Shown here one piece after another: positions 1,981 through 36,575 of a stretch of DNA of 64,000 nt. Origin of the DNA: Chloroflexota bacterium. Lineage in GTDB: Bacteria; Chloroflexota; UBA11872; VXOZ01. The notes under the pieces were generated by a model. The model ran no database searches. It was not told the DNA's origin and was given only the letters and a program-made list of their open reading frames with translations. The first letter of the stretch is position 1; every line of letters starts with the position of its first letter. The translations under genes and the position numbers were made by a program. The stretch is taken from assembly GCA_958295775.1 (NCBI GenBank), contig CATQHC010000002.1, positions 198,915-262,914 on the forward strand, written 5' to 3'.

Positions 1981-1981
1981 C

Positions 1982-3145: not shown

Positions 3146-3151
3146 CTGGCA

Positions 3152-7147: not shown

Positions 7148-7205
7148 TTGGAGTGGTTTTCCCAGAGGAAGACTCAAGAGAGCATGAAGAGAAAGAGGGG
7201 CGATA

Positions 7206-8600: not shown

Positions 8601-8813
8601 GCCTCAAGTATCGGGTTTCCCTGCGCATGGAGGATCCTGCCCGTAGCCCGTATCGACGGCATTGCGCTTGCGGGCCAGACGCAGTCGTCTAGAGATTGTT
8701 GGCAAGTGCAGCCGGTGCATGTGGATTGGCGGCACAGCCACTGCTTGCCACCCTTGGTCAGGTCTTGCAAATAGCTACGAATACATTCAGCTCCCAATAC
8801 TAGAGAGCCCCGC

Positions 8814-9782: not shown

Positions 9783-10026
9783 CCGCGAGTGTGAGGCCGG
9801 CGTAGCAAGTCTCTTGCCGGACGTGGCGCCCTCGTCACTTTCCTAAACCGCTTCTTTCGGCGATAATGCATGAGATGCGTCGCTGGGAGCGTTAGAGCCT
9901 GACGAAAAGAGCCGATTCGCATAGGCGTTCGCTCCCATTGCCCGCTATCGTGGTCCCGCAGCGCGCTGAGATGCGGCATGCCGCCGAACTCGAAATTCCG
10001 CAGTTGCACAACGTGGAGGATATGCA

Positions 10027-10812
10027 ATGGCACAGGCAATTACCAAGGTTTCGGCTGAAGAGCAGGCGTTCTATGTCGAGAACGGCTATCTCCTGATTAG
10101 GGGTCTGGTTTCTGCGGAGGGCATCGCGGAACTAAAGGAGCGGCTCGAAATGTACATGTACGACCGCTTGCCCGTACCTGAAGGCGTCAAGATTCAGGTA
10201 GAGCCGCGCGTCGAGCGTGGCGAAGTGCCCTGGCCCACGCGACGCGGCGACGCCTATCGCAAGATTGATCGACTCGTCGTTCACGATGATCGTTTTCGCG
10301 CGCTGGGCACCATGCCGGAAGTTGTGGAGCGCATGCAAGCTCTGATCGGCAGCGAGAACCTAAAGCTCTTTCGCGACTCGGTGCTGATGAAACCGGCGCA
10401 GGTGGGATCCGCCAAAGGGATGCACCAGGATTCACCTTATTGGCCGATTGAGCCGATGGCATTGAGCTCATGCTGGATGCCTTTTGAGCCTGCTACCCCG
10501 GAGAACGGCTGCATCACAGCCATTCCCGGCAGCCATAAACGCGGAGCCGTGCCCCACGAGCGCGTGCCGGATGATTACATTATCAACGAACAGCACTATG
10601 ACACCGGTGACGTAATTGCCGTGCCGATGGCAGCGGGCGACGGTCTTTTCTTCCACAGCCTACTGCTGCACGGCACCGCGCCAAACCTCACGGTACAGTC
10701 GCGGCGGGCGATCACGATGAGCTATATGGCGGCGGAATTCAAATATACCGGCGAGCCGCCAAAACCTGACTATCTGCGCATCTGCGGGCAAGACGTCCCC
10801 GGCGGGGTGTAG
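10027..10812 (+). CDS. Phytanoyl-CoA dioxygenase (PhyH) family Fe(II)/2-oxoglutarate oxygenase
   Basis: HQD facial-triad motif (GMHQDSPYWP); distal His in LLLHGTAPN; family-typical length; RBS ggagga. Confidence 0.65.
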   Translation: MAQAITKVSAEEQAFYVENGYLLIRGLVSAEGIAELKERLEMYMYDRLPVPEGVKIQVEPRVERGEVPWPTRRGDAYRKIDRLVVHDDRFRALGTMPEVVERMQALIGSENLKLFRDSVLMKPAQVGSAKGMHQDSPYWPIEPMALSSCWMPFEPATPENGCITAIPGSHKRGAVPHERVPDDYIINEQHYDTGDVIAVPMAAGDGLFFHSLLLHGTAPNLTVQSRRAITMSYMAAEFKYTGEPPKPDYLRICGQDVPGGV

Positions 10813-11020: not shown

Positions 11021-12757
11021 TTGGCAACTACCCAAGTGAATGAGAACATCCGCTACGAGAGGGATGACCGGTGCCCGCCGCTGGTTGCCATAGGCGTGGG
11101 GATTCAGGGCGTCATGATCGTGGTGGCGCCGGCCATATTGATCGTCGCCATCACTGCTCTCGCCGCCGGTCAAGATGAACAATACCTCGCTTGGGCCGTC
11201 TTCGCATCGCTCATAATTGGCGGGGCCATCACTGCCTTGCAGGCTGCGGGTATTAGCTGGCTGGGCACCCGGCACATCCTCATTACGGGAACTACACCGA
11301 ACTTCGTTGCGATTTCGGTCTTGGCCTTGGAGCAGGGCGGCCCGTCTACTCTGGCCAGCTTGATAGTTCTGTCGGCGTTCTTCTACTTGGCGGTGTCGGC
11401 GTGGCTGCCGCGGCTGCGCCGCATCATCACACCCACCGTATCCGGTATCGTCCTCATGCTGATCGCGGCCATGATTCTTCCTGTCGCCTTCGACCGGCTG
11501 AAGGAAGTGCCGGCAGGCACCCCGGAGCTTGCGGGCCCCGGTGTGGCGATGGTCACAGTGATCGTCACCACCTTGCTTGCGCTGCGCGGGCCGGTGTCCT
11601 GGCGGCTGTGGTCGCCGCTGCTCGGGATAGGCGCCGGCTGTGTGGCGGCCGCTCTGTTTGGCATGTTCGATTTGCAGCGACTGATGGAAGCTCCTTGGCT
11701 GGGCCTCCCCAGTGGCGGCTTTCCCGGCCTGGACCTCACGCCCTCAATCAGCTTCTGGGCGCTCTTGCCCATGTTCCTGGTGGTCACTCTGGTGCAGGCA
11801 ATCAAGACCGTTGGAGACGCGGTGGCCGTGCAACAGGTGTCGCAGCGCAGACAGCGTGCAATCGACTTTCGGCTTATCCAAGGCGCGCTCTACGCCAACG
11901 GCGTGGGCATCCTGCTATCGGGTCTCGCTGGGACACCGCCGACGAGCGCTTACTCGTCCTCCACTGCCTCGCTCATCAACCTCACCGGGGTTGCCGCGCG
12001 CAGCGTTGCCTACGCGATGGGGATACTCTTCCTAATCCTGGCGTTCTTCCCCAAAGTCACGGGAGTGCTCCTCACAATCCCCAACCCAATTATGGGGGCC
12101 TTCTTGTTGGTAGCGATTGGCATTCTCTTCGTTGAAGGCATGCGGGCTATCTCTCGTTCCGGCCTCGGCTATCAGGATGTGCTCGTCGTAGGGCTGGCGC
12201 TCTCTATAGGCATTGGGCTGCAACACCAGAACATCTTCGCGGGTATGTTGAATCCACCCTGGGACACATTGCTCGGCAATGGCATCATTGTTGGTAGCGC
12301 AGTGGCGATCGGGCTGACACTACTCCTTGACATAACAGGCCCAAGACGCAGACGCTTGGAGGTGCCGTTGGACAGCTCGGAGATTCCTCGCGTCGATGCA
12401 TTCCTGCAAGAAGTCGCAGCCAAGCTGGGGTGGAATGCTGCTGCAACCGACCGATTGCGCGCTGCGGGCGAGGAGACACTGGCAAGCCTGCTGCAGCCGG
12501 GCAACGAGGATGATGCAGGCAAAGTCCCCCGGCTGACTATCGTTGCAAGACCTGAGGGCAAAGCTGTGGAGCTTGAGTTTCTGGCAGATGTTGCCGAAGA
12601 GAACCTGGAGGACCGATTAGTCTATCTTGATGAGCAGAGCGAGACTCTGGACGACAGAGAGATATCGTTTCGCCTGCTGCGACACCACGCATCCTCAGTC
12701 CGGCACCAAAAGTACCACGGTTTGGACATCGTCACTGTGCGTGTTGACGCAACCTAG
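11021..12757 (+). CDS. NCS2/xanthine-uracil permease family transporter with ~150-aa C-terminal cytoplasmic extension
   Basis: Multi-TM protein; block TASLINLTGVAARSV…FPKVTGVLLTIPNPIMGAFLLVAIG resembles the Xan_ur_permease core; the C-terminal domain is of unknown type. Confidence 0.45.
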   Translation: MATTQVNENIRYERDDRCPPLVAIGVGIQGVMIVVAPAILIVAITALAAGQDEQYLAWAVFASLIIGGAITALQAAGISWLGTRHILITGTTPNFVAISVLALEQGGPSTLASLIVLSAFFYLAVSAWLPRLRRIITPTVSGIVLMLIAAMILPVAFDRLKEVPAGTPELAGPGVAMVTVIVTTLLALRGPVSWRLWSPLLGIGAGCVAAALFGMFDLQRLMEAPWLGLPSGGFPGLDLTPSISFWALLPMFLVVTLVQAIKTVGDAVAVQQVSQRRQRAIDFRLIQGALYANGVGILLSGLAGTPPTSAYSSSTASLINLTGVAARSVAYAMGILFLILAFFPKVTGVLLTIPNPIMGAFLLVAIGILFVEGMRAISRSGLGYQDVLVVGLALSIGIGLQHQNIFAGMLNPPWDTLLGNGIIVGSAVAIGLTLLLDITGPRRRRLEVPLDSSEIPRVDAFLQEVAAKLGWNAAATDRLRAAGEETLASLLQPGNEDDAGKVPRLTIVARPEGKAVELEFLADVAEENLEDRLVYLDEQSETLDDREISFRLLRHHASSVRHQKYHGLDIVTVRVDAT

Positions 12758-12966: not shown

Positions 12967-13875
12967 TCAGCCATTCCCGGTCTCGGCGATGAATTCGCGC
13001 ACGATATCGGCGCACTCCTCAGGCATTTCCAGTGGGAGAAAGTGCGTGGCATCCGGCAGGAAGTCGTAGTCCACACTCATGATGTCGCTTAAGTCGAGAG
13101 TCGGCAAGTACGAGAAGGGCAAGGTAGGATCAGCCCCAATAACCTTAATGGGGCAATGGAATTTGGCAAAGTCTACAAGTACGGCATAGGGGCTGGCATA
13201 GTCCACGATCTGCGCTTCATACGCGGGCGGACACCGCAGTTCATAGCCGGGTCCTTCCTTGCTCTGCCGTGTTGTTGCACGCGCCACGAGTTCGATAGTC
13301 CCCGGCACGGTGTGGTAGAACAATGGTGAGAAACCAAGGAGCTCTACGAAATCCTCCCTGCTCTTGAATCGTTCGGTGCGGCGCCGGGCCATGCCAGCGG
13401 CGCGCGTCGCAGCCGCATCGAATTCTTCATAGCTGGCGCCGGGTTTGCACAACGGCGGGTCAAATAGAATTAGCGCAGCAAACCGGCTGCCTTTGAAGGG
13501 TGAGACAAGTGTTGTGAGCGCAGAGACGGAGTGGAATACCCCAGTCATGGGTTTCTTGCCGTAATTGCAGTCAATCGCGTCGAGAATCAGATCATGGTCG
13601 CGCGCAAAGGTTGCTATTGTGTGCTCTCTGGCGGATGTCACAGTATTCCAGCCGTGGTTCCTGAGATCATGGACGATCACGTCGTAGTCGCTGGTGAGGA
13701 GCGACCAGAAGGGGTAATACAGATCAACTGCGAGGCCATTGCCGTGACAAATGAGCAGCCGATGCCCTTCCGGATTCCCGTGGCGGCGCAGAGAAATCAC
13801 GGTCTCATCGTCCACTTGCACTTCGAGAGTGGCAAGCGGATCAGGCACATTCCAAATTGCGTTTGCAGCCGACAT
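12967..13875 (-). CDS. Alpha/beta-hydrolase fold protein (putative acyl-chain releasing hydrolase of the PKS locus)
   Basis: HGNG oxyanion region, nucleophile-elbow-like FHSVSA, overall a/b-hydrolase pattern; located directly after the PPTase in the PKS cluster. Confidence 0.55.
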   Translation of the reverse strand: MSAANAIWNVPDPLATLEVQVDDETVISLRRHGNPEGHRLLICHGNGLAVDLYYPFWSLLTSDYDVIVHDLRNHGWNTVTSAREHTIATFARDHDLILDAIDCNYGKKPMTGVFHSVSALTTLVSPFKGSRFAALILFDPPLCKPGASYEEFDAAATRAAGMARRRTERFKSREDFVELLGFSPLFYHTVPGTIELVARATTRQSKEGPGYELRCPPAYEAQIVDYASPYAVLVDFAKFHCPIKVIGADPTLPFSYLPTLDLSDIMSVDYDFLPDATHFLPLEMPEECADIVREFIAETGNG

Positions 13876-13882
13876 AGGCGCG

Positions 13883-14611
13883 CTAGTCTTTCAAGATTGC
13901 GCTAGCTCTCGCTTCGCTCGCAAGAGCTGCCGCGAACCATTTGGTGCCAAGGTCTTCGATGTGCCACGTCACGGCGGGCATTTGCGGTAGCTGCAGCACG
14001 CCGCCGCGCATGCCCTGGATCATCGCGAGCGGGGTCTCAATCCGCGTGGCGTCGAGCGAGAACCCCTTGCCGTGAGCTTTGATGAGTGCTTCTTTAATGG
14101 TCCAGAGCTTGTAAAAGAAGTGTAGCCTATCGGCCCCCTGTGTAGATGCGAACTCAGCCTGTTCTCGCTTGCTGAGCACCGTGTCAACAAGAAACTCAAG
14201 GTTGCGGCGGCTGTCCCGTTCCTCGACGTCTACTCCCAGCCGGCCCTTTGGCGCGAGCGCGACCAAACCGTGTTTGCCACTGTGGCTTACATTGAAGCTG
14301 ATTGCGGCGGGTTCCCCATCCAGCAGGGCGAAGGGCTTCCCATGTTGGGTAAGTGCAAACGTTAGCTGCTCATTCTTGCATTGGAGCTGATCGCAAATCA
14401 CGGCACGCAATGCGGCGCGACATAATGAAAATCTGCGCCGGGGGCCCGCATAGGGAAAGCGCCGCCTACGGGCCTGCTCTTGCGCGTCCAGCCAAGCAAT
14501 TGCTGCGGTTTCTCCCTTAGCGCTGGGTAAAAGGTCTACATGGATTACATCAACTGAGTTGATAGTCTTGAACGGGGTCCACCAGCGCTCAGCATGTGAG
14601 TTGAGCGACAT
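13883..14611 (-). CDS. 4'-phosphopantetheinyl transferase, Sfp type
   Basis: PPTase motifs GVDVEE and WTIKEALIKAHGKG; ~240 aa, typical of Sfp-type enzymes. Confidence 0.75.
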   Translation of the reverse strand: MSLNSHAERWWTPFKTINSVDVIHVDLLPSAKGETAAIAWLDAQEQARRRRFPYAGPRRRFSLCRAALRAVICDQLQCKNEQLTFALTQHGKPFALLDGEPAAISFNVSHSGKHGLVALAPKGRLGVDVEERDSRRNLEFLVDTVLSKREQAEFASTQGADRLHFFYKLWTIKEALIKAHGKGFSLDATRIETPLAMIQGMRGGVLQLPQMPAVTWHIEDLGTKWFAAALASEARASAILKD

Positions 14612-14748
14612 TGCGCGCTGTCTCCAAGCCGGAATTTTGAAAAGGCTTCATGAATCAAGACAGTGTACCGATCTTGTGGAACGGCACACTGATTGAAAGC
14701 AAACAGAGACTAGCTTCGCCTCTTGCGAGCTGTGGTGCGCGCGGGAGC

Positions 14749-15000
14749 CTAAGCCGCTTGCGAGTCAAGAAACTCAATTAGCTCACGAAGGTTGTTGAGT
14801 GTCGGACAATGCTCACGCGTGAAGGTGACATTGAACTCTTGCGCCACCACTTTTCCAAATGAGACGATATCCATCGACGATACGCCGAGGTCTACGAGGC
14901 TGGCTTCCAAATCGACGGACGATCCAAGTGACTTACCGTCAACTTCCAGATTATCCGCAACGAGACTACGAACCCTTTCTTCCGTAGAGGCCATATACAT
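14749..15000 (-). CDS. Discrete acyl carrier protein
   Basis: 83 aa with LGVSSMDIVSF phosphopantetheine-attachment-like site; RBS agggaga upstream. Confidence 0.6.
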   Translation of the reverse strand: MYMASTEERVRSLVADNLEVDGKSLGSSVDLEASLVDLGVSSMDIVSFGKVVAQEFNVTFTREHCPTLNNLRELIEFLDSQAA

Positions 15001-15205
15001 TCTCCCTACTGCTACAAGGCGGCATTTCGACAGTCATAAGGGTAGCAAAACAGATCGAAAGTGGTCAACATTACGTGTCCGCCCGGCTGGCGGCAGCAGA
15101 GCAGGGTTACTGCCCCTACATTACACCGGGTAGATTGTAGTCTTGAGTTTCGTTGCTCTGCTCGCAACACGCTGAGCCCGCCGGAGGTTCCTGGGAAATT
15201 AGTTC

Positions 15206-16068
15206 TTAGAACCAGTGACGGCGGCGTTGGAAAGGGTAGCCTGGCAACGACACACGGCGCCTTGCTTCTCCGGCGAACAGCCCCCTGAAAGTTATCGCCA
15301 GGCCGGCCTCATACGCTCTCGCAACCGCCTCGGTGAATTCATTCCTGGGCCCAGGCGCTGTTTCCACAGAGGCTGTTCGTACAAGGGCTGCAATTGCAAC
15401 TGGCGCGTGAGCGCTCGCTGTCGCGCCTGCCGGTTCCGGTCGGTCTGTGGCAACAGTGAGACAAGAGTCTGTCCCGGAGTCAATCTCTATTACCACATCT
15501 ACGCCAAGTTCAACGAGAGATTCTAAGCTGTCTTGGGAGTGCGGCTGGTCTATAGTGCGCTGTTGCCAGTATGACGTGTCAATTTGCTCGCCCGGCGCCA
15601 CAGTGCGCCCCAACCCGTTACTCACGTACGTGACCGAAGGTGATGAGAGTTCGAGCTCTTGTACCCCGGCTGCCAGCGCCTCAGTATTGGGGCCGGCCGG
15701 GACCGCGTCGGCAAGCTCTGCTGCATGCGTGCCAAGTGCCGCGGTAAGCCTAAGTCCGTCTTCCAAACTCAATACGCCCGCCGCCTGCGCCGCGGCAATC
15801 TCGCCACGCTTGGATCCGAGCACCACATCCGGCCGGACGCCCACGGTTTCCCACAATGCGGTCAGCGCACATGCCAGCGCATAGAGCGCCGGTTGCAGCA
15901 AAGCGGGGTCTGCCGGCTCTCCCTCCGCTCCACTCGCTCCAAGCATGGCGTCCAGCAAAGATGCGCCGTGCTCTTCCTGGTAAACCTCATTGCAACGGTC
16001 AAAGACGGCGCGCGCAACGGGCTCCTGCTCATACAGGGACTTTCCAAGCTAAGCCGGCGGCAATCCGC
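15206..16068 (-). pseudogene. Decayed acyltransferase (AT) domain remnant of a second PKS module
   Basis: After KVAFVFSG the GQGSQW motif is replaced by a 22-nt stretch that shifts the frame; the downstream frame then reads LGKSLYEQEPVARAVFDRCNEV…LLDAMLG…, paralleling AT1. The active site GHSLGE has become GSKRGE. The ~110-aa small-subdomain region including the AFHS motif is absent. It ends with the post-AT linker …YPFQRRRHWF*. Confidence 0.65.
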
Positions 16069-19000
16069 GCCGGAAAATACGAACGCCACCTTGGTTGCGC
16101 TTGGCGGATCGAAATCTTCAGGCTTTTCATCGCTTGCCGCCAGCGCTGCAAGCTGCAACTGTAAGTCCCTGGCATCTTGAAACACCAACCCCTTACGATG
16201 CGCAAAGTGGCTGCGGCCCACGCCGGCGGTCCAGGCAATGTCAGAGAGCGTGGCCTCTGCAGCCAGGTCTGGCAAACCCGATGCAACGTTGTGTTGAGTG
16301 AGCCATGCCAGATAGCTCTCTGCGAGCTGGCGCAAAGCGCGGTCGGTCTTGCCAGCGAGCGGCAGAAGACGCGTAGTACGCGGGGTGATCGCTGCCACCG
16401 GCCCCGCGGACACAGCATCGGGAAGGGAAACCTCAACTTCTCGCGAAACTCCGGCCGGCCACTCCTGGTTCGGGTTGCCGTCGCTGGGCTCGTCATGTGC
16501 GCCGTAGCCTTCCAACAAGAGGTGCGCATTTGCGCCTGAAATGCCAAATGCATTAACCCCCGCGAGCGGCGGCCGGTCGGTAGTGTGCGGCCAGTCCGTC
16601 GCGGCGGTCGTCACCTGGACAGGCATGCGCTCCCAATCTATGTCGGGGTTTGGTGTTTGAAAGTTTATGTGCCGAGGTATTACTCTTCGGTTCATTGCCA
16701 GGAGAGTCTTGATGACGCTGGCCGCGCCACCCGCGGACTCAAGGTGTCCGATGTTCGTCTTTACCGAGCCAATGAAAAGCGGACGCTCTGGTGTACGACT
16801 CTTGCCATAGACAGAGGAAACCGCGTTCAATTCGATGGCGTCACCCAGGGGCGTCCCCGGCCCGTGGGCTTCAACATAGTCGACGTCAGCCGGGGCGAAC
16901 CCGGCTTGGGCAAGCGCTTCCTCCATTACACGCTCTTGCGCCGGGCCGTTCGGTTGGGTGAGGCCCAGGCCCGCGCCGTTTTGGTTCACTGCCGAACCCC
17001 GGATCACGCCCCAAATACGATCACCGTCCGCTTCGGCGTCGCTTAGCCGCTTGAGAACCACCATGCCGCAGCCTTCGCCGCGCACGTAACCGTCTGCCGC
17101 GGCGTCGAACGACCAGCACTGGCCTGTTGGAGACAACATCCCAACGTCTTCGAGGAAACGCATTACCGATGGGGCGAGGACCGCTTGTACGCCGCCGGCC
17201 AGCGCCAAGTCTACTTCGCCACGCTGCAAACTCGCCGCCGCCTGGTGCACGGCAACCAAGGATGACGCGCACGCCAGGTCTAGCGGCACCGCGGGACCTT
17301 CCAAGCCAAGCGAATACGCAATCCGTCCCACGGCCACGCCGCCGGAAGTACCAAAGAAGTCGTCACCCCCGCCGTTTGCGCTAATCAGCCGGCGATACTC
17401 GCTGCTGCCGATGCCTGCGTACACGCCGCTACGGCTGCCCTTGAGCCGGTCTGGGTCAATGCCTGCGTCCTCGAGGGCGTGCCAACTCGTCTCAAGCAAG
17501 AGGCGTTGTTGCGGATCCATGGTGCGCGCTTCGATGGGCGCAATCCGGAAGAACCGCGAATCAAAATAGTCTATCTCATCGATAAACGCCCCTCGTCGAC
17601 TGGCGGCATCCTCAGCGTCCGGGTCACCGGCGACGCCGGTCCATGAACCGGCATCTTGGCGTCCGTCCGTGACCTTGTTCATGCCGGCATCCAAGATCTT
17701 CCAGAATGCGTGAATGTCATCCGCGCCGGGGAAGCGGCACGCCATGCCCACGACGGCAATGCCATCCTGGTCGGTTTGGACTTGTGGCGGCGGATCCGGC
17801 GCAATGCTCGCGGGAGGCGTCGGCAGTTCTTCGACAGCACCGAGCTCTGCGGCCAAGTGGCGCGCCAGACCGGCAATGCTGGGATAGTCGAATACCACGG
17901 TGTTGGAGGCCACGTACTCCCCGGCAAAACCACGGTTAATGCGGTTCCGCAACTCGACCGCCATGAGCGAATCCATACCCAGATCGGAGAAGTCCACCGT
18001 GGGGGCCGGCTCCGTCGGCAAGCGCATGACTGACTGGATCTCCTGCTGAAGGAACGACACGAGTATCTGCTCGCGCTCAGCGAGGGCAGCGGCGTGGAGA
18101 CGAGGCATCAAATCCTGTGGCAATTCGGATTGCTGCTCTTCGCCATCCGCGGCAGCGGACAACAGATCTTCCAGCAGTAGCGGTTTGTCCTCATGATTCT
18201 GAGCGAATACCTGCCAGTCGACTGCAGCGACCATGCCGGCGGTAACATCCTGGCGCATGAGCGATTCTAGCGACCGCAATCCCTGCTGCGGTGTCATCCA
18301 ACCTGTTCCCGCTGCTTCCAGTTGACGCGAGATTCTGTCGCGCTGTTCTTCCGCTTCGCCAAGTCCCGCCCATGCGCCCCAGGCGATAGATTGACCCGCA
18401 AGTCCTAGGGCCCTGCGGTGGCCGGCAAGCTGATCCAGAAACGCATTGGCGGCCCCATGGTTCGCCTGACCGGCATTGCCTAGCACACCCGTAACGCTGG
18501 AGAACAGCACAAAGAGGTCCAGGTCGCGGTCCAAAGTGGCGCGGTGGAGATGCCAAGCGCCCAAAACCTTGGGCCACAGCACGTCTTCAAAACCTTCCCA
18601 GGTCTGGTTGGTGAGCGCGGCATCGGAAAGGACACCTACGCTATGGATAATGCCCGCGAGCGGCGGCAAGGACACATCGATGCGTGCCAACATCGCATCC
18701 ACCGCAGCGGCGTCTGTAACATCGGCCAACTCTACCCGGATCTCTACGCCGCGCCGCTGCAGTGCGTCGATTGCTGCCACCGCCTCAGGATCGGGATCAC
18801 GGCGGCCGTTCAGGACAATCGCCCCGGCGCCGCGTTCCGCCAGCCAGCCGGCCAAGGCGCAGCCAATGCCGCCAAGGCCGCCCGTTATCAGGTAGGTTCT
18901 ATCGTCTCGCAACTGCCCGGTCTCGATCGGAGATATAGTGAGTACGATCTTGCCAATGTGCCGCGCCGCGCGCATGAAATCCATGGCCGGCCCGGCTTCG

Positions 19001-22000
19001 GTGAGCGACCATCTGCTGTGAATGAGCGGTGTCAGCGCTCCATCGGCCAACTGTTGCATCACCCTTCTTAGGGCGTCACCCGGGAGAGCTGGGTCGTGTT
19101 CCTTCAACGTGTCTAGTTCCAGGATGGTGTAGGCAACGTCCGGCCTTGCCGCTGCCATTTCTTCCATACTCAGGATGCCTACCCGCGCCAGCTCCACGAA
19201 GCGGCCGCTTTGCGCCAGGCAGGATAGGCTCGCCTCAATGAATCCTTCTCCGGTCAGGCTGTTCAATACAACGTGAACACCCTGGCCTTCAGTGGCGTCG
19301 AGTATTTGCTGCCCAAAAGCCGTCTGGCGGCTGTCGAAGACGTGCTCTACACCGAGTGAGCGAAGGAAGGCCTGTTTTGGAGCGCTTGCCGTGGCGTAAA
19401 CTTCGGCGCCCACAGCCTGGGCTAACTGTATGGCCGCCAGGCCCACGCCGCCTGCGCCTGCGTGAATTAACACCCGGTCACCGGCTTTCAAGTCGGCAAT
19501 GTCGTACGACAATGCGGCGGAAACGAACGCAGTCGGCATCGTGGCAAGTTCCGCCACAGAGTAACCTTCCGGTGCGGGCGCCACCATCTCTTCGACCATA
19601 ATGGCTTCCGGCCCAAACGTCCCAAACGCTAAACCGACCACGCGATCTCCCACCGAAACCGCCGTCACGTCTGTGCCAACCTCTAGGACTCGTCCGCAGA
19701 ACTCTCCACCCAACAAGCCCTCGTCAATGAGTGCAAGCGACCGAAAGACATCCCAGAAATTGAGCCCCGCTGCGTCGACGGCCACGCGGACCTCTCGCGG
19801 TGCCAGCGGCCTGGCCGGAAACGGTCCCACCCCCATGCTCTCGAGGGCGCCGCCTTCATCCGGCTGCAGAAGCCAGTGCGACCCCTCAGGCAGCATTAAC
19901 CGGTTGGTCTCGGCGCCAATTCGCACCAGACGGGCCGCCTGACGGAGTCCTGATCGATACGCAATGTGGTCTTCGTTGTCCGGATAGAGAAGCTCATTAA
20001 CCAATTCGGACAGCGGAGTCTCTTGTTCAGGTTCCAAGTCGAGCATTCTTGGTTGCAGGTCGCCTGCTTCCCGTGCCACCACCTTGCCAAATCCCCACAG
20101 CAAAGCGCCGGAGAGCTGCCCGAGACGCTCCTTTGCCAGCACCTGCCCGCCACGCGTTAAAAACCACGTGCCATTCTCAGGAGTTACGTCGGCGTCGCCC
20201 ATGCCCTGGACCAGCGCGAGGGCGCTTGCCCCGGCACTTCGCACATCCTCGGACAATTCTGCGGCCGCAGCATCGGGGCCATGACCATCCAATGCTGTCA
20301 AATGAACGATGCCGCTGAGCGGTAAGTCTTTAGGCAACGCTGCGAGCAGTTCCTGCCAAGGTTCGCGGCTCTTTGATTCAAGGGAGGCTCGGAAGACGCC
20401 GGAGGTTTCCTGGACGCTTAATGGAGACTTCTCTACGCTGTCATTGACCAGCACCACGGTCTGGTTGCGTGTCGCCAGGGCCGCTGCCAAGTCTTCCGCA
20501 GTGCCGCCGCGGTCTGCTGCCAGCACCCAGGCGCCCGCTGATTCCAGCACTTGCTCCGGGCCCTGTGCCACGATGACGCCCCGGTCCGGCATTCTGGTCG
20601 AGTCGCTCGTATCCACTCCCAAGACTTCTACTTCTTGAAAGCCGGCGTCATACAGCGCTTGGCGCCAGACTGCGGGACTTGCCAGGGCATGGTGTGGCCG
20701 GTATTCGTCAGCAAACCGCCACCATCCGTCTAGCTGCCCAAACGTCAAGTCGAGCCAGCCCTGTCCACGAAGGTTTTCTAGGGCAACGAGTTGTCCGCAT
20801 GGCGCGAGAAGCTCCCGACAATGGCCGAGGGTTTCCTGAAGATACCGGGTGGCATGGAGCACGTTGGACGCAATTACCAAATCATAGCCATGGGCATTGA
20901 ATCCCTGCGCCAACGGGTCTTTTTCAATGTCAAGCACCCTATACTCTATGGACGCCTCAGCGCCGCCAAAGCGCCCCTCCGCTTCCGCAAAGAACCCGGC
21001 AGAGATGTCCGTATAGACGTAGTCGAACCTACCAGCCGGTAGTTCGGGCAATACGGCTGCCGTAGCCGACCCGGTACCGGCGCCGACTTCCAAGACCCGC
21101 AGCCTCCGTTCGCTAGGCACGCTGCGCAGCAGCGCGGCAACAGCGTCGCCCAACATCTTGTTGGCGGCACGCGCTACGGGCGCCTTGCGATACAGGTCCG
21201 CGGCGCTCGGTTCGCCGCTGCTGAAGAGCAGCGTCAGTGGGTCTGCTTCACCGCGCAGCACGTCCGCCAAGGCGCCGGCACTGCGACGAAACAGACCGAT
21301 TTCGTTCGACCCGTGTGCATACTTTGAGTCCATCTGGACCGCAAATGCGTCGGGGTCAGCAGGCACCTCATCGGGCAGAGCGTCCTCGGGCCCGGCAATC
21401 ACGGTAAAGTCGCCGCCATTCTCCTGCAAAACGCCGGCTTTCGCCTGCATCTCCAGCAGACGGCGGAATAGGCGCCGGTGCTCGTCCAATACGTTAAGTT
21501 GCCGCCGCAGGGTCTCCGGTTCAATTATCTCTCCTACTTGCCGCTGCCACCCTAACTGCTCCAGAGTTACGCGAGCGTAGGACCACGACAGGTGTTCCAG
21601 GTCCGTCAGCAAGGCATCGCGGTCATCGGGTGCGACGCCCTCCGCCGACAGATATTGAGAAAACGTGTCGGATCGAGCCGCAATGGCCGCGGGGCGAATG
21701 AGAAAGTCCGCAGACGGCATTCCTGGCGGCAGGGGGCGGTCTCGCCAGATCACCTCATACAGAAGGTCTGCGACTTCCTCTGTTGCCGAGAGCAACGCGG
21801 CGCGCGTAGCCCGCTTTACCGTGTAGCCGTCCAGTCCGCCGATTTGCGTGCCATCCTGCGAGTAGAGGCGCAGGTCGCCAGACAGCACTTCCGGTGTGTC
21901 ACTTGAATTGTCGTCGGACACGGTGTCCCTGGCGCTTTCGCGTAAGCGCGCGTGGCAGATGAGGCGTTCCGGCAATGGCTTTGTCAACCACATCCGCTCC

Positions 22001-25000
22001 CATCCAAAAGGCAGGTATGCCTCTCCGCCTTCAGCGTTGGCCTGTCGCCGGGCAGCCGCCATAACCTGAAAACAGCCGTCAAGCACAATTGGATGCGTTT
22101 CTATGCCGCTGAGGTCTGCGGACTCTTGGAGAGCTATTTCTCCGATTGCTTCCCTCTCGCCCGTCCACAGTGACTGGAGGGTGCGGAACCGCGGGCCAAG
22201 AGTTACATTAACCTCCGCTCTGGCGCGATAGAAGCCCTGTATGTCTTGCACTGCAAGACCTTGCCTCAAACCATCCAAGCTAACGGTCTCACTGGCCTGT
22301 TTCGCGCCGGTAGACACCTGGCACTCCACGTGCAGCGTCCAGCTATCTTCATCCTCGCCTTTGCTGTACACCTCGACCCGGCGCGAGGATCCTACCTCGG
22401 GTGCGCCAAGCACGAGCTGCACCCTACGACTCTCCGGTTGGGAATCCTCTTCCGCATCCTGTTCCGGCAGAATTATTGGGTTGTGCAGTTGGAATTCTTC
22501 CACAACCACCGGTCCACCGACTTCCGTCCACGCCGCTGACACAGCCATAGCCCCGCAGAGTGCCGCCGGCACCACGTGACGGCCGTACACCTGATGATCG
22601 TCCAACCAGGCAGGATCCGCTGCCGAAATCTCCGTCTCGAATGAGACTTCGCCAAGGGGCGACTCATGCCGAGACCCCAATAGCGGGTGGTCTGCGCTCG
22701 ACCGGCGGCGGCTCGGAGCGTCAACCCAATGGCGGCGGCGCTGAAATGGATAGTCGGGCAGCGAGATGCGCCGGCGACTTTCACCGGCGAAAAGTCCTTC
22801 TAGGGAAAGAGACAATCCAGCTTCAAACGCTGTGGCCACAGCGTCTACAAAGCTGCTCTCGGGCTCTGTTGTCGTACTATCTCTGGGCGGCCGCCGGAGG
22901 CTGGCCACCACCAGCGGGGTGTTGTCTGTCCGACCATTCGATGGTTCCGGCCAGGCCAAGGTCGCCATCGGTCCCAGCACGGCGTGGGGACCAATTTCCA
23001 CTACAACGTCAACGCCCAATTCGGCAAGAGTCTTGATGCCTTGGTTAAATGCCACCGGCTGCCGCATGTGACGGCGCCAGTAGTCCCCATCAAGATTTTT
23101 ACCCGATCCTATAACTTGACCCGTGACATTGCTCACCAATTCGATTGAGGGAGCTGAAATGCCAACGTCTTTCAACGCAGACGCAACATCCTGTAGAGCA
23201 GGTTCAATGAGGGCACTGTGGAAGGCCTGGCTCGTATTCAAGCGCCGGACGCGCACATCCTGTGACTCAAAGCGCCCCATGATCGCCTCGACACCGGGTA
23301 CGGGACCGCTTACTACTTGGTGGGCGCCGTTAAAGGCCGCAATGCTGACGTCGAGATCGTTGGACGAAGCATTCACCGCACGTATCGCTGCCATTACATC
23401 TGGCTCCGGAGCAAAAATGGCAGCCATTGCGCCCGCACCGGACAGCGCATCAAGCGATGCACCGCGCCGTGTCACAAAACGCATGCCAGCTTGCAGCGAA
23501 AAAACGCCGGCTGCCTGCGCTGCCGCAAACTCGCCAAGGCTATGTCCTACCACCATGCTGGGCCGAATCCCAACGCTCGCCCACATTGCCGTCAAGGCAC
23601 ATTCCAATGCATAGATTGCGGGTTGCGCCCAGGCGGTAGCGTTCAAGTTGCCTGTCGCTTCCGGCCGTCCAAACATCACATCCAGCAGTGAATCCCCGCG
23701 CTCCTGCTGAAATACCGCTTCGCACTGATCCAATACAGCCCGGAAGACCGGTTCGTCTTTATACAGCGTTGCTCCCATACCGACCCACTGGCTGCCTTGT
23801 CCGGTGAAGGCAAATGCCACCTTACGTGAAGCGGTCGTCTCCGACGCTGCAGGAGCTTCCAAGAGCTCTTGCAATTGTTCACGCAGCGAGGCGGCGTCCT
23901 GAAACCTTAGAGCGGCACGATGGGGAAAGTGGCTGCGGCCGACACTCGCAGTCCAGGCCATGTTTGAGAGCAACGTGCTCGCAGCAGGATCCTCGTCTGC
24001 AAGCTCATCGCCATGCGCGTCGAGCCAGGCGAGGTAGCGGCCTGCCGCTTCCTTGAGCGCTTGGTCGCTCTTGCCCGATAGCGGCAGCAGGCGCGTGGGG
24101 CGCGAGGAGGGGCCTTCCGCCCGTGCCGGTTCGGGAACATCATCCGGTAGCGAGACCGCAATCGGGTACAGAGCGCCGGTTGGCCAAGACGGTGCTTTCC
24201 CTGCACCGGATGCGCTGTCCGACGCTTCGTGGCCTTCCACAATTACGTGCGCGTTTGTGCCCGACCAGCCGAAGCCACTGACACCGGCCAGTGGGAGGCG
24301 ATCCGGCTGGCGCGGCCACTCCATTGTCTCCGACGTTACCTGCAGCGGCAGTCGGTCCCAATCGATTTCAGGATTAGGGGTGCGGTAGTTGCGGTGTTTT
24401 GGAATCACCCCCTGATGCATAGCCAGGACAACCTTGATTACCCCGGCGACTCCCGCGGCGGACTCAAGGTGGCCGAGATTCGTCTTGACCGATCCGATGA
24501 GTAATGGGCGTTCCGGTTCGCGGTCTTGGCTATAGGCGGTCCCTGTAGCCTGCGCCTCAATCGGGTCGCCCACCGGCGTGCCCGTACCGTGCGCCTCCAC
24601 GTAGTCTACTTGGGAAGGCAGGACGCCAGCGCGACTCAGGGCGTCCGCGATTACCTGTTCCTGCGCCGCTCCATTCGGCACGGTCAGTCCCGGGCTCGCC
24701 CCGTCCTGGTTAATGGCCGATCCTCTTATCACGCCCCAGATGCGGTCGCCGTCGGCTTTCGCCTCGCTCAGGCGCTTTAGGACAATTATTCCGCAGCCTT
24801 CACCCCGCACATACCCATTGGCGGCGGCGTCAAACGTCTTGCATTGCCCATCCGGCGCCAACATACCGGCATTGCCGCGCAGCTCCAGGAGGCGCCCGGA
24901 GAGAATAGTATGGACTCCCCCCGCAAGTGCTAGGTCCGCCTCTCGCCTCTGCAATCCAACTATTGCTTGATGAATTGCTACCAACGATGATGAACAGGCA

Positions 25001-25608
25001 GTGTCCAACGCGATCGCCGGTCCTTGAAAACCCAGCGCAAAACACACGCGACCGATGGCGGTGTTAAAGGAGGTGCCGCTTACCGAATACAGGCTGGTTG
25101 CAGGCTCGGCTGTATCGCCGGACCCGAGAACCAAATCGCGGTATTCCATGTTGCTGATGCCTGCGTAGACGCCGGTGGGGCTGCCTCTGAGACGTTCCGG
25201 ATCAATGCCGACATCTTCAAGAGCCCGCCAACTCGTCTCCAGCATGAGCCGCTGCTGCGGGTCCAGCAGTTGCGCTTCAACCGGGGAGATTCGGAAGAAC
25301 CCGGCGTCGAACTGGTCGATCTCGTCCAGATACGCGCCAAATAGGCAGGCTTCGTTTTGGACTTCAGCATCCGGGAACAACTGACCGATACGGCCGATGC
25401 CGGAACCGGGCTCACCCTGAATGACGGCCGTCTTTCCCGCTTCCAAGAGACGCCAGAAGTCCAAGAGGGTCGGAGACTGGGGAAAGCGGCACGCCATACC
25501 GACAATTGCTATCGGCTCCTCGAGCTGGCGAGGATGGGGCGGGGACGTTTCCGCTTTGGCACTCGTATCCACGGAGTTGTTACTTTGCATAGCTGACTTC
25601 ATTGTCAA
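15862..25608 (-). CDS. Type I polyketide synthase, highly reducing with C-methyltransferase: KS-AT-DH-cMT-ER-KR-ACP plus KS2 (3' end frameshifted)
   Basis: Approximate domain coordinates (nt, minus strand) with diagnostic motifs: KS1 24235-25512 (DTACSSS, HGTGT, GHLE); AT1 22963-23820 (GQGSQW, GHSLGE, QAFHS, suggesting malonyl specificity); DH 21814-22692 (HPLLGSRHESP); cMT 20689-21291 (LEVGAGTGSAT); ER 18934-19896 (LIHAGAGGVGLAAIQ); KR 18349-18900 ([15 protein letters not shown]); ACP 17839-18066 (LGMDSLMAV); KS2 16504-17766 (DLACASS, HGPGT, GHLE). The reading frame is lost after residue ~3180 (nt ~16069). Confidence 0.85.
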   Translation of the reverse strand: MTMKSAMQSNNSVDTSAKAETSPPHPRQLEEPIAIVGMACRFPQSPTLLDFWRLLEAGKTAVIQGEPGSGIGRIGQLFPDAEVQNEACLFGAYLDEIDQFDAGFFRISPVEAQLLDPQQRLMLETSWRALEDVGIDPERLRGSPTGVYAGISNMEYRDLVLGSGDTAEPATSLYSVSGTSFNTAIGRVCFALGFQGPAIALDTACSSSLVAIHQAIVGLQRREADLALAGGVHTILSGRLLELRGNAGMLAPDGQCKTFDAAANGYVRGEGCGIIVLKRLSEAKADGDRIWGVIRGSAINQDGASPGLTVPNGAAQEQVIADALSRAGVLPSQVDYVEAHGTGTPVGDPIEAQATGTAYSQDREPERPLLIGSVKTNLGHLESAAGVAGVIKVVLAMHQGVIPKHRNYRTPNPEIDWDRLPLQVTSETMEWPRQPDRLPLAGVSGFGWSGTNAHVIVEGHEASDSASGAGKAPSWPTGALYPIAVSLPDDVPEPARAEGPSSRPTRLLPLSGKSDQALKEAAGRYLAWLDAHGDELADEDPAASTLLSNMAWTASVGRSHFPHRAALRFQDAASLREQLQELLEAPAASETTASRKVAFAFTGQGSQWVGMGATLYKDEPVFRAVLDQCEAVFQQERGDSLLDVMFGRPEATGNLNATAWAQPAIYALECALTAMWASVGIRPSMVVGHSLGEFAAAQAAGVFSLQAGMRFVTRRGASLDALSGAGAMAAIFAPEPDVMAAIRAVNASSNDLDVSIAAFNGAHQVVSGPVPGVEAIMGRFESQDVRVRRLNTSQAFHSALIEPALQDVASALKDVGISAPSIELVSNVTGQVIGSGKNLDGDYWRRHMRQPVAFNQGIKTLAELGVDVVVEIGPHAVLGPMATLAWPEPSNGRTDNTPLVVASLRRPPRDSTTTEPESSFVDAVATAFEAGLSLSLEGLFAGESRRRISLPDYPFQRRRHWVDAPSRRRSSADHPLLGSRHESPLGEVSFETEISAADPAWLDDHQVYGRHVVPAALCGAMAVSAAWTEVGGPVVVEEFQLHNPIILPEQDAEEDSQPESRRVQLVLGAPEVGSSRRVEVYSKGEDEDSWTLHVECQVSTGAKQASETVSLDGLRQGLAVQDIQGFYRARAEVNVTLGPRFRTLQSLWTGEREAIGEIALQESADLSGIETHPIVLDGCFQVMAAARRQANAEGGEAYLPFGWERMWLTKPLPERLICHARLRESARDTVSDDNSSDTPEVLSGDLRLYSQDGTQIGGLDGYTVKRATRAALLSATEEVADLLYEVIWRDRPLPPGMPSADFLIRPAAIAARSDTFSQYLSAEGVAPDDRDALLTDLEHLSWSYARVTLEQLGWQRQVGEIIEPETLRRQLNVLDEHRRLFRRLLEMQAKAGVLQENGGDFTVIAGPEDALPDEVPADPDAFAVQMDSKYAHGSNEIGLFRRSAGALADVLRGEADPLTLLFSSGEPSAADLYRKAPVARAANKMLGDAVAALLRSVPSERRLRVLEVGAGTGSATAAVLPELPAGRFDYVYTDISAGFFAEAEGRFGGAEASIEYRVLDIEKDPLAQGFNAHGYDLVIASNVLHATRYLQETLGHCRELLAPCGQLVALENLRGQGWLDLTFGQLDGWWRFADEYRPHHALASPAVWRQALYDAGFQEVEVLGVDTSDSTRMPDRGVIVAQGPEQVLESAGAWVLAADRGGTAEDLAAALATRNQTVVLVNDSVEKSPLSVQETSGVFRASLESKSREPWQELLAALPKDLPLSGIVHLTALDGHGPDAAAAELSEDVRSAGASALALVQGMGDADVTPENGTWFLTRGGQVLAKERLGQLSGALLWGFGKVVAREAGDLQPRMLDLEPEQETPLSELVNELLYPDNEDHIAYRSGLRQAARLVRIGAETNRLMLPEGSHWLLQPDEGGALESMGVGPFPARPLAPREVRVAVDAAGLNFWDVFRSLALIDEGLLGGEFCGRVLEVGTDVTAVSVGDRVVGLAFGTFGPEAIMVEEMVAPAPEGYSVAELATMPTAFVSAALSYDIADLKAGDRVLIHAGAGGVGLAAIQLAQAVGAEVYATASAPKQAFLRSLGVEHVFDSRQTAFGQQILDATEGQGVHVVLNSLTGEGFIEASLSCLAQSGRFVELARVGILSMEEMAAARPDVAYTILELDTLKEHDPALPGDALRRVMQQLADGALTPLIHSRWSLTEAGPAMDFMRAARHIGKIVLTISPIETGQLRDDRTYLITGGLGGIGCALAGWLAERGAGAIVLNGRRDPDPEAVAAIDALQRRGVEIRVELADVTDAAAVDAMLARIDVSLPPLAGIIHSVGVLSDAALTNQTWEGFEDVLWPKVLGAWHLHRATLDRDLDLFVLFSSVTGVLGNAGQANHGAANAFLDQLAGHRRALGLAGQSIAWGAWAGLGEAEEQRDRISRQLEAAGTGWMTPQQGLRSLESLMRQDVTAGMVAAVDWQVFAQNHEDKPLLLEDLLSAAADGEEQQSELPQDLMPRLHAAALAEREQILVSFLQQEIQSVMRLPTEPAPTVDFSDLGMDSLMAVELRNRINRGFAGEYVASNTVVFDYPSIAGLARHLAAELGAVEELPTPPASIAPDPPPQVQTDQDGIAVVGMACRFPGADDIHAFWKILDAGMNKVTDGRQDAGSWTGVAGDPDAEDAASRRGAFIDEIDYFDSRFFRIAPIEARTMDPQQRLLLETSWHALEDAGIDPDRLKGSRSGVYAGIGSSEYRRLISANGGGDDFFGTSGGVAVGRIAYSLGLEGPAVPLDLACASSLVAVHQAAASLQRGEVDLALAGGVQAVLAPSVMRFLEDVGMLSPTGQCWSFDAAADGYVRGEGCGMVVLKRLSDAEADGDRIWGVIRGSAVNQNGAGLGLTQPNGPAQERVMEEALAQAGFAPADVDYVEAHGPGTPLGDAIELNAVSSVYGKSRTPERPLFIGSVKTNIGHLESAGGAASVIKTLLAMNRRVIPRHINFQTPNPDIDWERMPVQVTTAATDWPHTTDRPPLAGVNAFGISGANAHLLLEGYGAHDEPSDGNPNQEWPAGVSREVEVSLPDAVSAGPVAAITPRTTRLLPLAGKTDRALRQLAESYLAWLTQHNVASGLPDLAAEATLSDIAWTAGVGRSHFAHRKGLVFQDARDLQLQLAALAASDEKPEDFDPPSATKVAFVFSGADCRRLSLESPCMSRSPLRAPSLTVAMRFTRKSTAHLCWTPCLERVERRESRQTPLCCNRRSMRWHVR

Positions 25609-26038
25609 CCTTTCTCAATTGGGGGCCACGTACCGGCTAGAGCGCACCCTTGCGCCGGAGGCCGGTCTCTTACGGCTAGCAATTAGCAGAATTCGCCCTA
25701 GCTCAAAAGGCGCGGGTTCATAGAAATCCATCATACACCGATTGGTAGACCTGAGCGCAGTAAGGGAGGGAGCGAGGCGGCGGACGATAACTCTCGAATG
25801 CAACTGCATTTCGTTTGTCAGCCAATATAGGCGCGGCAGCAATGACGCGGTCGTAGCTGGTGCGGCGAGTCTGCGGCCACATCTGTGCGGCCAATTCTCA
25901 ATGCAATAGTTCCTGTGGCCCACTAGGCCGGAGGCTGAAAATCGGCTAGCTTTACTTTTACACATGGTGCGCGATATTACTGGTGAGGCGTTTCCTGCGG
26001 CGAAATGCCAGAGCATGGGTTTACCAAGAGACGATTCA

Positions 26039-26071
26039 CAAGAGCCGGTCCCAATTGGGAACCGGCTCTTG
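26039..26071 (-). terminator. GC-rich hairpin (11-bp stem, palindromic loop) between the SBP gene and the PKS promoter region
   Basis: caagagccggt-cccaattggga-accggctcttg; lies 40 nt downstream of the SBP stop on the same strand. Confidence 0.4.
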
Positions 26072-26109
26072 CGTCACAGTCTTAGTTCGCCAGGAACGTG
26101 AAACAGAGT

Positions 26110-27507
26110 TTACTCGTTGTAGAACTCCTGGATGGCCGGCTCTTGGAGCACGACGTCCCAACGCGCGGCGACGTTATCGAGCGCGTCGCGGGCGTCGAGT
26201 TCACCGGCGCCGGCTTTTGCCAACTCTTCCAGGATGATGGGACGCATCCTGTCCCAGCCCGGAATTGGCTGTCTGCCCAAGCCTACGCTTTGCAGATTGT
26301 TCAGCAGACCGGACAAGAAAGCGTTTTCCTGCACATAGGGAGCCTTGGCAGCGACCGACACACGCGGCGGCAAGAAGAACGTCAACTCGTCGTAGGCAAT
26401 GAGCACGTCGTCCTCATGCACCGTGAGCAGCAGGTCCCACGTCACATCCGGGTCCTTGGTGGCAGCGCCCATGCCCAGCCAGTCGTTGAATGAAAGGCTG
26501 ACTGCGCGCTGGTCACCCATGGGCTCAGGCGCAACGTAGATTTCATCTACGTTTTCCGGTGCATCCGTTGCAACGCGGCGGCCAATCGCGGCGTTGCCCC
26601 AAATCATGGAAACATAACCGCCGGCAAAGCCCGCACCGTAGCCACTGAATTCCGGCCCAACGTACGATGAACCGTGAGGATTGAAGCCCCGCTTGCGGCG
26701 CAATTGAAATTCCAGTCCCGCGATAGCTTCAGGGCTATTGACGAAGCCGGATGCCTTACCATTTGTGACCCATTGCACGCCATTCGATTCGACAATGCCG
26801 TTCAATTCGGCTTCCTCGGGATCACGACCGAGATTGCCCGGGCTGAACCCATAGCGCTCGACTTCTTTACCCAGTACCTTCCACTTCGTCATGGTGGTGG
26901 CAAAATCGGCTTGGTCATCCATGGTCCACGCGGTTGGCGGCGTCAAACCGGCCTCGGACATGTGGTCATCGCGGAGCCAGTACGAGCGATTGGCCGCCAT
27001 CATCGGCATGCCCTGCAACTGGCCCTTTACACGCACCGTATCGAGCGTACTGGGCAGGAAGTCCGGCTCCATGCCCCACGTGGCAAAGTAAGGATTTAAT
27101 GGTATTGACAGTCCCGCCATGTAGATGGAAGGCGCGATGGCTTGTCCCATCTTGAAGAGGTCGGGCATCTGGCCGGCGGCCAGGCCAACTGATAGTTCCA
27201 CAAAGGTGTGCGCCTGCCCGCCCGTACGCGGTGTAAAGACTACCTCACCGTTGGGGTACTTCTCCTGAAAGCGCTCGTTCAGAATGCCTTCCGCCCACGG
27301 CTGCCAGCCGCCGCCATCCTGCACGCTGAGCTTAACTTCCTGTGTCTTAGGACCGGATTCTGTTGCTGGCTCTGCGGCCTTGGGTTGGTCGCCGTCCATC
27401 TCCGTGGACTGGGTTTGCACCTGTCCACATGCTGCCAGCAAGCCCAGTGCTCCAACCGTTACGCCGGAAGCTAGCAGCCCACGGCGAGTCATATGCAAAG
27501 CGCTCAT
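26110..27507 (-). CDS. ABC transporter substrate-binding lipoprotein (family 1, sugar-type); no cognate permeases adjacent
   Basis: Tat/Sec-like signal with lipobox (RRGLLASGVTVGALGLLAACGQ); SBP_bac_1-like length and composition. Confidence 0.65.
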   Translation of the reverse strand: MSALHMTRRGLLASGVTVGALGLLAACGQVQTQSTEMDGDQPKAAEPATESGPKTQEVKLSVQDGGGWQPWAEGILNERFQEKYPNGEVVFTPRTGGQAHTFVELSVGLAAGQMPDLFKMGQAIAPSIYMAGLSIPLNPYFATWGMEPDFLPSTLDTVRVKGQLQGMPMMAANRSYWLRDDHMSEAGLTPPTAWTMDDQADFATTMTKWKVLGKEVERYGFSPGNLGRDPEEAELNGIVESNGVQWVTNGKASGFVNSPEAIAGLEFQLRRKRGFNPHGSSYVGPEFSGYGAGFAGGYVSMIWGNAAIGRRVATDAPENVDEIYVAPEPMGDQRAVSLSFNDWLGMGAATKDPDVTWDLLLTVHEDDVLIAYDELTFFLPPRVSVAAKAPYVQENAFLSGLLNNLQSVGLGRQPIPGWDRMRPIILEELAKAGAGELDARDALDNVAARWDVVLQEPAIQEFYNE

Positions 27508-33468: not shown

Positions 33469-33543
33469 TGGTAGCGGGGGAGGGATTCGAACCCTCGACC
33501 TTCAGGTTATGAGCCTGACGAGCTGCCGCTGCTCCACCCCGCG
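33469..33543 (-). tRNA. tRNA with CAT anticodon (Met elongator or Ile2-lysidine type)
   Basis: 75-nt cloverleaf folded by hand: acceptor CGCGGGG/CCCCGCU with a C1-U72 mismatch, anticodon loop CUCAUAA, T-loop TTCGAAT, 3' CCA encoded; only two G-C pairs in the anticodon stem. Confidence 0.8.

Positions 33544-35040: not shown

Positions 35041-36575
<1,535 letters not shown>

Follow-up and report, generated by a model that had tools for sequence, protein, structure and literature searches.

A probable sup-type polyketide synthase cluster with a second ketosynthase and a dead acyltransferase in a Chloroflexota contig

The 64,000-nucleotide stretch of the Chloroflexota contig CATQHC010000002.1 analysed here (positions 198,915 to 262,914, called the window below) carries a compact locus with a large type I polyketide synthase (PKS) gene, followed on the same strand by genes for a free-standing acyl carrier protein (ACP), an Sfp/HetI-type 4'-phosphopantetheinyl transferase (PPTase) and an alpha/beta-hydrolase (Table 1), and it is compared in the following with the sup ("sponge symbiont ubiquitous PKS") clusters of sponge-associated bacteria. 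A preliminary description made from the DNA letters had already listed these four genes, and the presence of the three small ones downstream of the PKS is confirmed by Pfam, but the set was incomplete, since a permease gene at 11021-12757, just beyond the hydrolase gene and convergent with it, constitutes the fifth gene.

As sequenced, the PKS gene is a single open reading frame (ORF) of 3248 amino acids, 25608..15862 on the minus strand, with TTG at 25608 or ATG at 25602 as start codon, plus an out-of-frame remnant of an acyltransferase (AT°). All motifs quoted in the preliminary description are found in its translation, including LITGGLGGIGC, GMDSL, HQVYGRHVVP and LIHAGAGGVGLAAIQ. At the coordinates of Table 1 Pfam recovers the C-methyltransferase (C-MT), enoylreductase (ER) and ketoreductase (KR) set together with ketosynthase (KS), acyltransferase (AT), dehydratase (DH) and ACP domains, among them PS-DH/PKS_DH_N, Methyltransf_12/23, ADH_zinc_N (the ER) and PP-binding, with E values of 1.6e-156 for the KS (both copies combined), 3.4e-59 for the AT and 1.8e-61 for the KR, which is far beyond what chance could produce. 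The order KS-AT-DH-C-MT-ER-KR-ACP given earlier thus holds for the domains it lists, but it is not the complete order, since a second ketosynthase (KS2) and AT° follow the ACP. Pfam finds no thioesterase in the PKS, as had been stated.

Table 1. Features of the sup-type locus, in coordinates of the window
Feature	Position	Strand	Size, motifs and remarks
supA-type PKS gene, repaired (KS1-AT1-DH-C-MT-ER-KR-ACP-KS2-AT°)	15206..25608	minus	3467 aa after 1-nt repair
KS1	24235..25515	minus	DTACSSS, EAHGTGT, NLGHLE; LDPQQRLM (DPQQR) present
AT1, active	22909..23814	minus	GQGSQW, GHSLGE, QAFHS, malonyl-type motifs; aa 599-878
DH	21793..22689	minus	HQVYGRHVVP, DGCFQ; aa 974-1272
C-MT (class I)	20626..21609	minus	LEVGAGTGSAT, NVLHAT, LVALEN; aa ~1489-1661
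ER, zinc alcohol dehydrogenase type	18940..19800	minus	LIHAGAGGVGLAAIQ; aa ~1937-2223
KR	18367..18897	minus	TGGLGGIG; aa 2238-2414; catalytic Tyr replaced by His (GQANHGAAN)
In-line ACP	17854..18054	minus	LGMDSLM; PP-binding aa 2519-2585
KS2 with C-terminal extension	16255..17763	minus	DLACASS, EAHGPGT, NIGHLE, Cys-His-His intact; aa ~2616-3118
AT°, degenerate acyltransferase remnant	15206..16048	minus	Pfam Acyl_transf_1, E 4e-13; in another frame than the ORF
Frameshift site	16040..16047	minus	TTGGAAAG here, ATGGGCAAAG in relatives; one base missing
Free-standing ACP (SupB-like)	14749..15000	minus	83 aa; Pfam; Ser context GVSSMD, not DSL
Sfp/HetI-type PPTase (SupC-like)	13883..14611	minus	242 aa; ACPS and AASDHPPT_N
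Alpha/beta-hydrolase (SupD-like)	12967..13875	minus	302 aa; Ser116, Asp249, His278; HGNG oxyanion motif
NCS2 (xanthine/uracil-type) permease (SupE-like)	11021..12757	plus	578 aa; Xan_ur_permease, E 1.8e-42

The GHSLGE and QAFHS motifs of AT1 are both of the malonyl type, in agreement with the malonyl-CoA use suggested before, and the methyl branch should therefore most likely come from the C-MT. Among the orthologues AT1 remains malonyl-type (GHS[LVIF]GE with xA[F/Y]HS), and the C-MT retains its S-adenosylmethionine (SAM) binding motif, NVLHAT and LxALEN, the latter two of which presumably hold the catalytic His and Glu, as in the C-MT structure of CurJ. Conservation likewise extends to the DH and the ER, to the serines of the two ACPs and to the motifs of the PPTase. 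The catalytic Tyr of the KR is His both in the window (~18410-18450) and in 60 of 60 orthologues, with the NADPH motif and the Lys, Ser and Asn intact, and in the alignment it occupies the position of the catalytic Tyr in mycocerosic acid synthase (MAS) and in the KR of AmphB. According to a review, the Tyr of KRs is "sometimes replaced by histidine", a variant that occurs in active KRs (PMC7327777). Because of this precedent, and because the KR is the best-conserved PKS domain of the family and the His is universal in it, we take the KR to be active; for the same reasons an inactive KR was rejected as the leading reading of the replacement.

KS2 lies after the in-line ACP within the same ORF and is followed by a KS-AT linker (Pfam) and then by AT°. 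In the window GQGSQW of AT° has become GADCRR, GHSxG reads GSKRGE with no Ser, and the HAFH region is deleted; the C-terminal end is the post-AT linker YPFQRRRHWF. The catalytic Cys-His-His of KS2 is kept in 58 of 58 orthologues, and the nucleophile Ser of AT° is absent from the same number (GH[G/D]LGE, GQGLGE and similar), with the HAFH region gone in all. KS1 and KS2 form separate clades, with ~70% identity within each and ~59% between them, indicating that the duplication is old and that the second KS is ancestral to the family. With KS2-AT° as query more than 100 proteins were found, with 50-62% identity over 100% of the query length, and the named matches come from assemblies of Gemmatimonadota, Nitrospira, Caldilineaceae, Latescibacteria, Bryobacterales, Dehalococcoidia and Nitrospinae. 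Judged from these residues, AT° is a non-catalytic scaffold undergoing erosion, and KS2 is under selection. The body of AT° is wholly lost in about nine lineages (loci L022, L029, L055, L056, L068, L078 and L080 are among those lacking it), where KS2 and the linker are followed by no more than the ~40 C-terminal residues (YPFQRRRHW).

Among the accessory genes, the free ACP has across its orthologues a phosphopantetheine Ser context of the form (S/P)-S-(M/V/T)-D, as against the usual D-S-L, and this unusual context may account for the dedicated PPTase, whose best NCBIfam match is HetI. The hydrolase is 60-81% identical over its best 120 matches, has a mean column identity of 78% across phyla and belongs to a compact family (a library clustered at 50% identity holds 224 representatives at E<1e-30); it is one of the most conserved parts of the cluster, and a role as thioester-cleaving off-loader is plausible. 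An AlphaFold2 model of it based on 14 sequences was poor (pLDDT 58.6) and was redone with 64 sequences; a profile search against PDB sequences gave weak generic matches only, and the gene contexts of distant relatives, on short contigs, were uninformative. The permease carries a cytoplasmic C-terminal extension of ~140 residues (12330-12757 in the window), with a sub-threshold match (E 0.095) to HATPase_c_2, an anti-sigma kinase domain like that of RsbW/SpoIIAB. Genes for anti-anti-sigma factors adjoin a SupE homologue on a fosmid from Plakortis (PMC3908369).

Species-representative genomes were scanned for the hydrolase, 80 hydrolase loci were fetched for context, and synteny was assessed by tblastn with the domains of the window. 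At least 588 of the genomes encode the hydrolase, and all 80 fetched loci are from assemblies of uncultured bacteria. The carriers include Chloroflexota, Dehalococcoidia, Tepidiformaceae, Latescibacterota, Gemmatimonadota, Acidobacteriota, Binatia, Thermodesulfobacteriota, Acidimicrobiia and Opitutales, among others. At the 67 loci with at least 9 kb of upstream sequence, the PKS is located directly upstream of ACP-PPTase-hydrolase in 47 cases, and the ACP and the PPTase were found in 57 and 43; the convergent permease is present downstream at 40 of the 74 loci with enough sequence on that side, and the complete arrangement of the window at 30 of the 80. When the other flanking ORFs were clustered, no family occurred at more than 8 of the 80 loci, so that no sixth conserved gene was found and the conserved unit is exactly five genes, namely PKS, ACP, PPTase, hydrolase and permease. 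The closest relatives of the PKS (60-83% identity) are from assemblies of uncultured genomes, with mycobacterial PKSs next. Assembly names of the kind SB06xx, COS, RHO and Plut occur among the orthologous loci, and these probably belong to reef-sponge and coral studies.

The sup cluster, SupA to SupE, was reportedly described in the original papers of Fieseler et al. in 2007 and Hochmuth et al. in 2010, and the family has been known since 2007; the names SupB, SupC and SupD are those that we assume for the ACP, the PPTase and the hydrolase. A published table gives SupE as a permease (PMC3908369, Table 1). The sup genes encode a small PKS found widely and exclusively in high-microbial-abundance sponges, where they dominate KS amplicons (PMC4245539, PMC3908369); their early assignment to Poribacteria was withdrawn, and mid-chain-branched fatty acids have been proposed as the product (PMC4245539). 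Later work places SUP-like cluster families in assemblies from Chloroflexota, Spirochaetota, Proteobacteria and Acidobacteriota, without regard to taxonomy (PMC9426513). The sup-like nature proposed in the preliminary description, a PKS that is highly reducing and C-methylating, accompanied by ACP, PPTase and hydrolase, is borne out by this literature and by the gene set and order in dozens of genomes. The best explanation, to which we give a probability of roughly 0.8, is a canonical locus of the sup family in which the growing chain is handed from the first module to KS2 and the free ACP. The cluster type is already known and very common, and the copy in the window adds no new kind of system.

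In the mechanism that we propose, the PPTase would activate both the in-line and the free ACP, and an acyl starter would be loaded onto KS1 in trans, because there is no loading module. In module 1, AT1 would supply malonyl, KS1 would make one extension, the C-MT would methylate the alpha-carbon, and KR, DH and ER would fully reduce the chain to a 2-methylacyl-ACP. KS2 would then take the 2-methylacyl chain and condense it with malonyl on the free ACP, which, because AT° has no nucleophile, should be loaded in trans by AT1 or by the FabD of the host. The resulting 3-oxo-4-methylacyl-ACP might be reduced, and perhaps further elongated, by the SupA domains in trans or by the housekeeping fatty acid synthase (FAS), after which the hydrolase would release what is most likely, in agreement with the proposal in the literature, a saturated fatty acid with a methyl branch. 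A single pass of the C-MT followed by further elongation would leave one mid-chain methyl branch, in line with the proposed product.

Several points weigh against this interpretation. Gene content, the link through the named permease and the sponge-type assemblies are the grounds for identity with the published Sup proteins, and no named Sup protein is among the database matches of the KS amplicon region, of KS2-AT° or of the hydrolase. How often module 1 cycles, what loads the free ACP and what becomes of the 3-oxo intermediate are matters of inference, and a methyl-branched fatty acid is so far a proposal of the literature. The KR has His in place of the catalytic Tyr, its activity in this family being a prediction, the supA gene is frameshifted as sequenced, and supA is missing at this exact site in two sister genomes.

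The last two points bear on whether the locus is decaying in this lineage. Aligned at the DNA level with L001 and L002, its two closest relatives, the window lacks exactly one base in TTGGAAAG, and insertion of one base at 16040-16047 restores a single ORF of 3467 residues. The frame breaks after "AFVFSG", the final 62 residues of the 3248-residue protein are out-of-frame sequence, and the end of the ORF at 15862 is therefore not the natural C-terminus; the 3248-residue megasynthase of the preliminary description exists as an ORF but not as the full-length protein. Upstream, the AT° frame is closed by a TAG at 16051-16049, and it is open for 280 codons up to the stop codon. Two explanations fit the missing base, an error of assembly and a very recent mutation. 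If real, the frameshift would have removed the post-AT linker, and the locus would be heading to the state of the two sister genomes without supA, L003 and L085, which are related Chloroflexota. These have flanks identical to those of the window on both sides and have kept ACP, PPTase, hydrolase and permease (the L085 hydrolase is 81% identical), and they have no PKS between the gene for the solute-binding protein and the ACP gene (8560-8860 in L003 and 8560-8951 in L085; the counterpart in the window is 15000-26110). The intergenic DNA of the supA-less relatives at this site does not align with the window, and no deletion junction could be defined. Of the 67 loci that have 9 kb or more of upstream sequence, 12 show no PKS in the fetched DNA, up to 10 kb on either side of the hydrolase. 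Decay would also fit with the frame changes seen somewhere in the surveyed PKS at 4 of 61 orthologous loci, the PKS being in one frame at the other 57, and with the frameshifts in 15.4% of the supA amplicons from one sponge, the origin of which was left open (PMC4245539). However, the upstream 9.5 kb of the gene is an unbroken ORF with all catalytic motifs intact, the AT° frame stays open, and the defect is a single base in a short run of G and A, which is typical of an assembly error. Moreover, the break sits in a domain that is catalytically dead in all orthologues, and eight of the eight neighbouring genes compared align over their full length with those of relatives. Decay is thus unlikely. 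Many PKS homologues in the databases are internal fragments of 300-1470 residues on very long contigs, which points to frequent splitting of supA in public assemblies, by gene callers or by frame errors.

A second alternative concerns the product. KS2 might add a last, unreduced C2 unit on the free ACP, and the hydrolase might free a 3-oxo-4-methyl acid that decarboxylates to a methyl-branched methyl ketone or serves as another small exported metabolite, with the permease serving in transport or sensing. In favour of this, neither reductive domains after KS2 nor a conserved reductase in the neighbourhood of the cluster were found, the hydrolase, unusually well conserved, has its own compact family, a transporter is part of the conserved cassette, and beta-keto acids from PKSs with an inactive KR are known to yield ketones (PMC7327777). 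However, a permease of the nucleobase type is no obvious carrier of a lipid or ketone and its gene is convergently transcribed, and the correlation linking mid-chain-branched fatty acids in sponges to sup (PMC4245539, PMC4210886) favours a fatty acid. A product of this kind is clearly unlikely. Still further from what we expect is that the cassette, instead of ordinary membrane fatty acids, makes a methyl-branched ketone or related small molecule, handled by the permease, as a shared and horizontally spread metabolite of the symbiosis, which would be consistent with the persistence of the ACP-PPTase-hydrolase-permease set in the sister genomes without supA at the site.

Improbable, too, is a single-module iterative synthase, as predicted in the preliminary description, that runs many cycles, methylates in some or all of them and passes a multi-methyl chain directly to the hydrolase, with KS2-AT° and the free ACP as accessory or vestigial parts, for although the order KS-AT-DH-C-MT-ER-KR-ACP is that of iterative fungal highly reducing PKSs and of animal FAS, the closest solved KR relative is the iterative MAS, and a loading module is lacking, the catalytic triad of KS2 is present in 58 of 58 orthologues in an old clade of its own, the free ACP with its own PPTase is conserved beside the PKS, and one would not expect a KS that was vestigial to have remained intact over at least eight phyla as the adjoining AT decays. 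KS2-AT° changes the mechanistic picture in that KS2 and the dedicated downstream ACP argue against a simple iterate-then-hydrolyse scheme.

The genes around the cluster (~5.8-32.4 kb) encode a solute-binding protein, an iron-type alcohol dehydrogenase, an ABC transporter, a PhyH dioxygenase and ceramidase-like proteins, and sugar-modifying genes lie farther off at 922-3898 and 37000-37947. At 5786-10812 there are two tandem ceramidase-like genes, a gene for a protein with a metallo-beta-lactamase (MBL) fold/beta-CASP domain (best match a ligase-associated exonuclease) and one for a PhyH-family dioxygenase. The Chloroflexota loci L001 and L002 share the PhyH dioxygenase, the MBL-fold protein and the two ceramidase-like genes with the flank of the window at 80-89% identity, so that the window should belong to a related Chloroflexota chromosome, and since these genes are conserved only in the closest Chloroflexota relatives they lie outside the mobile cassette. 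A scan for promoters and terminators gave nothing above the shuffled expectation. A complete 16S rRNA gene is located at 35042-36576 on the minus strand, followed by the RNase P RNA at 33601-33927 and a tRNA-Met at 33472-33543; no 23S or 5S rRNA gene was found anywhere in the 64 kb, indicating that the rRNA operon is unlinked.

The literature ranks sup clusters as the most abundant PKS genes of sponge microbiomes, and after nearly two decades their product and role are still proposals. The present census sharpens the question, in that the unit has five genes, KS2 is always intact and its AT always dead, and four of the genes can persist where the PKS is missing. It thereby sets out what a minimal construct has to contain and which mutants would make an expression experiment decisive.

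Compared with known systems, a synthase for polyunsaturated fatty acids was considered and rejected. A capsule PKS of the WcbR/RkpA type, which would be embedded among capsular-polysaccharide genes, was rejected as no capsule-export genes are among the ORFs scanned up to ~40 kb, and a multimodular assembly line as no other KS is encoded in the ORFs up to ~40 kb and no other family recurs at more than 8 of the 80 loci. Fungal highly reducing PKSs and animal FAS have the same domain order, with a methyltransferase (or pseudo-methyltransferase) between DH and ER, but the window holds a bacterial five-gene cassette with an extra KS-AT°, an ACP acting in trans and no thioesterase or reductase domain for release. 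MAS and the MAS-like mycobacterial PKSs have the KS-AT-DH-ER-KR-ACP core in common with the locus, and also the methyl-branched lipid that is proposed as its product; MAS is the best solved-structure match of the KR (E 9.6e-42), and outside the family the named KS relatives that come nearest are mycobacterial PKSs, at ~60% identity. MAS has, however, no C-MT and takes its branches from methylmalonyl-CoA (AT motifs GHSQGE/YASH), and it has neither a second KS-AT° nor a dedicated set of free ACP, PPTase and hydrolase. The distinction from MAS-type PKSs drawn in the preliminary description was thus correct, and the presence of the C-MT and the malonyl-type motifs of AT1 (GHSLGE/QAFHS) rule out that type. 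The swf system (SwfA-C; Della Sala et al. 2013, PMC3908369) is also a small reducing type I PKS/FAS widespread in sponge symbionts, and a SupE-like permease lies near one swf fosmid (PMC3908369). SwfA differs in being KS-AT-DH-ER-KR-ACP without a methyltransferase, in the KS motifs DPQ[I/V]R and HATGT and in the AT motif GHSSGE (PMC3908369), and it is accompanied by SwfB (reductase and sulfotransferase) and by SwfC (radical SAM), neither of which is present here. Identity with swf is ruled out, as none of these, the methyltransferase-less PKS, DPQ[I/V]R/HATGT, GHSSGE, SwfB or SwfC, was found here. The sup PKS, finally, is a small type I enzyme with the order KS-AT-DH-MT-ER-KR-ACP, and Pfam and the motifs give the same in the window. 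The sup KS carries the primer motifs DPQQR and HGTGT, the group having been defined from KS amplicons, and KS1 has both; an ACP, a PPTase, a hydrolase and a permease (SupE) adjoin the sup PKS, and all four are present. In this comparison, which leaves the KS2-AT° tail to one side, no substantive difference was found except the 1-nt frame break in AT°. Sup clusters occur in many phyla, including Chloroflexota, irrespective of taxonomy, and the same is true of loci of the window type.

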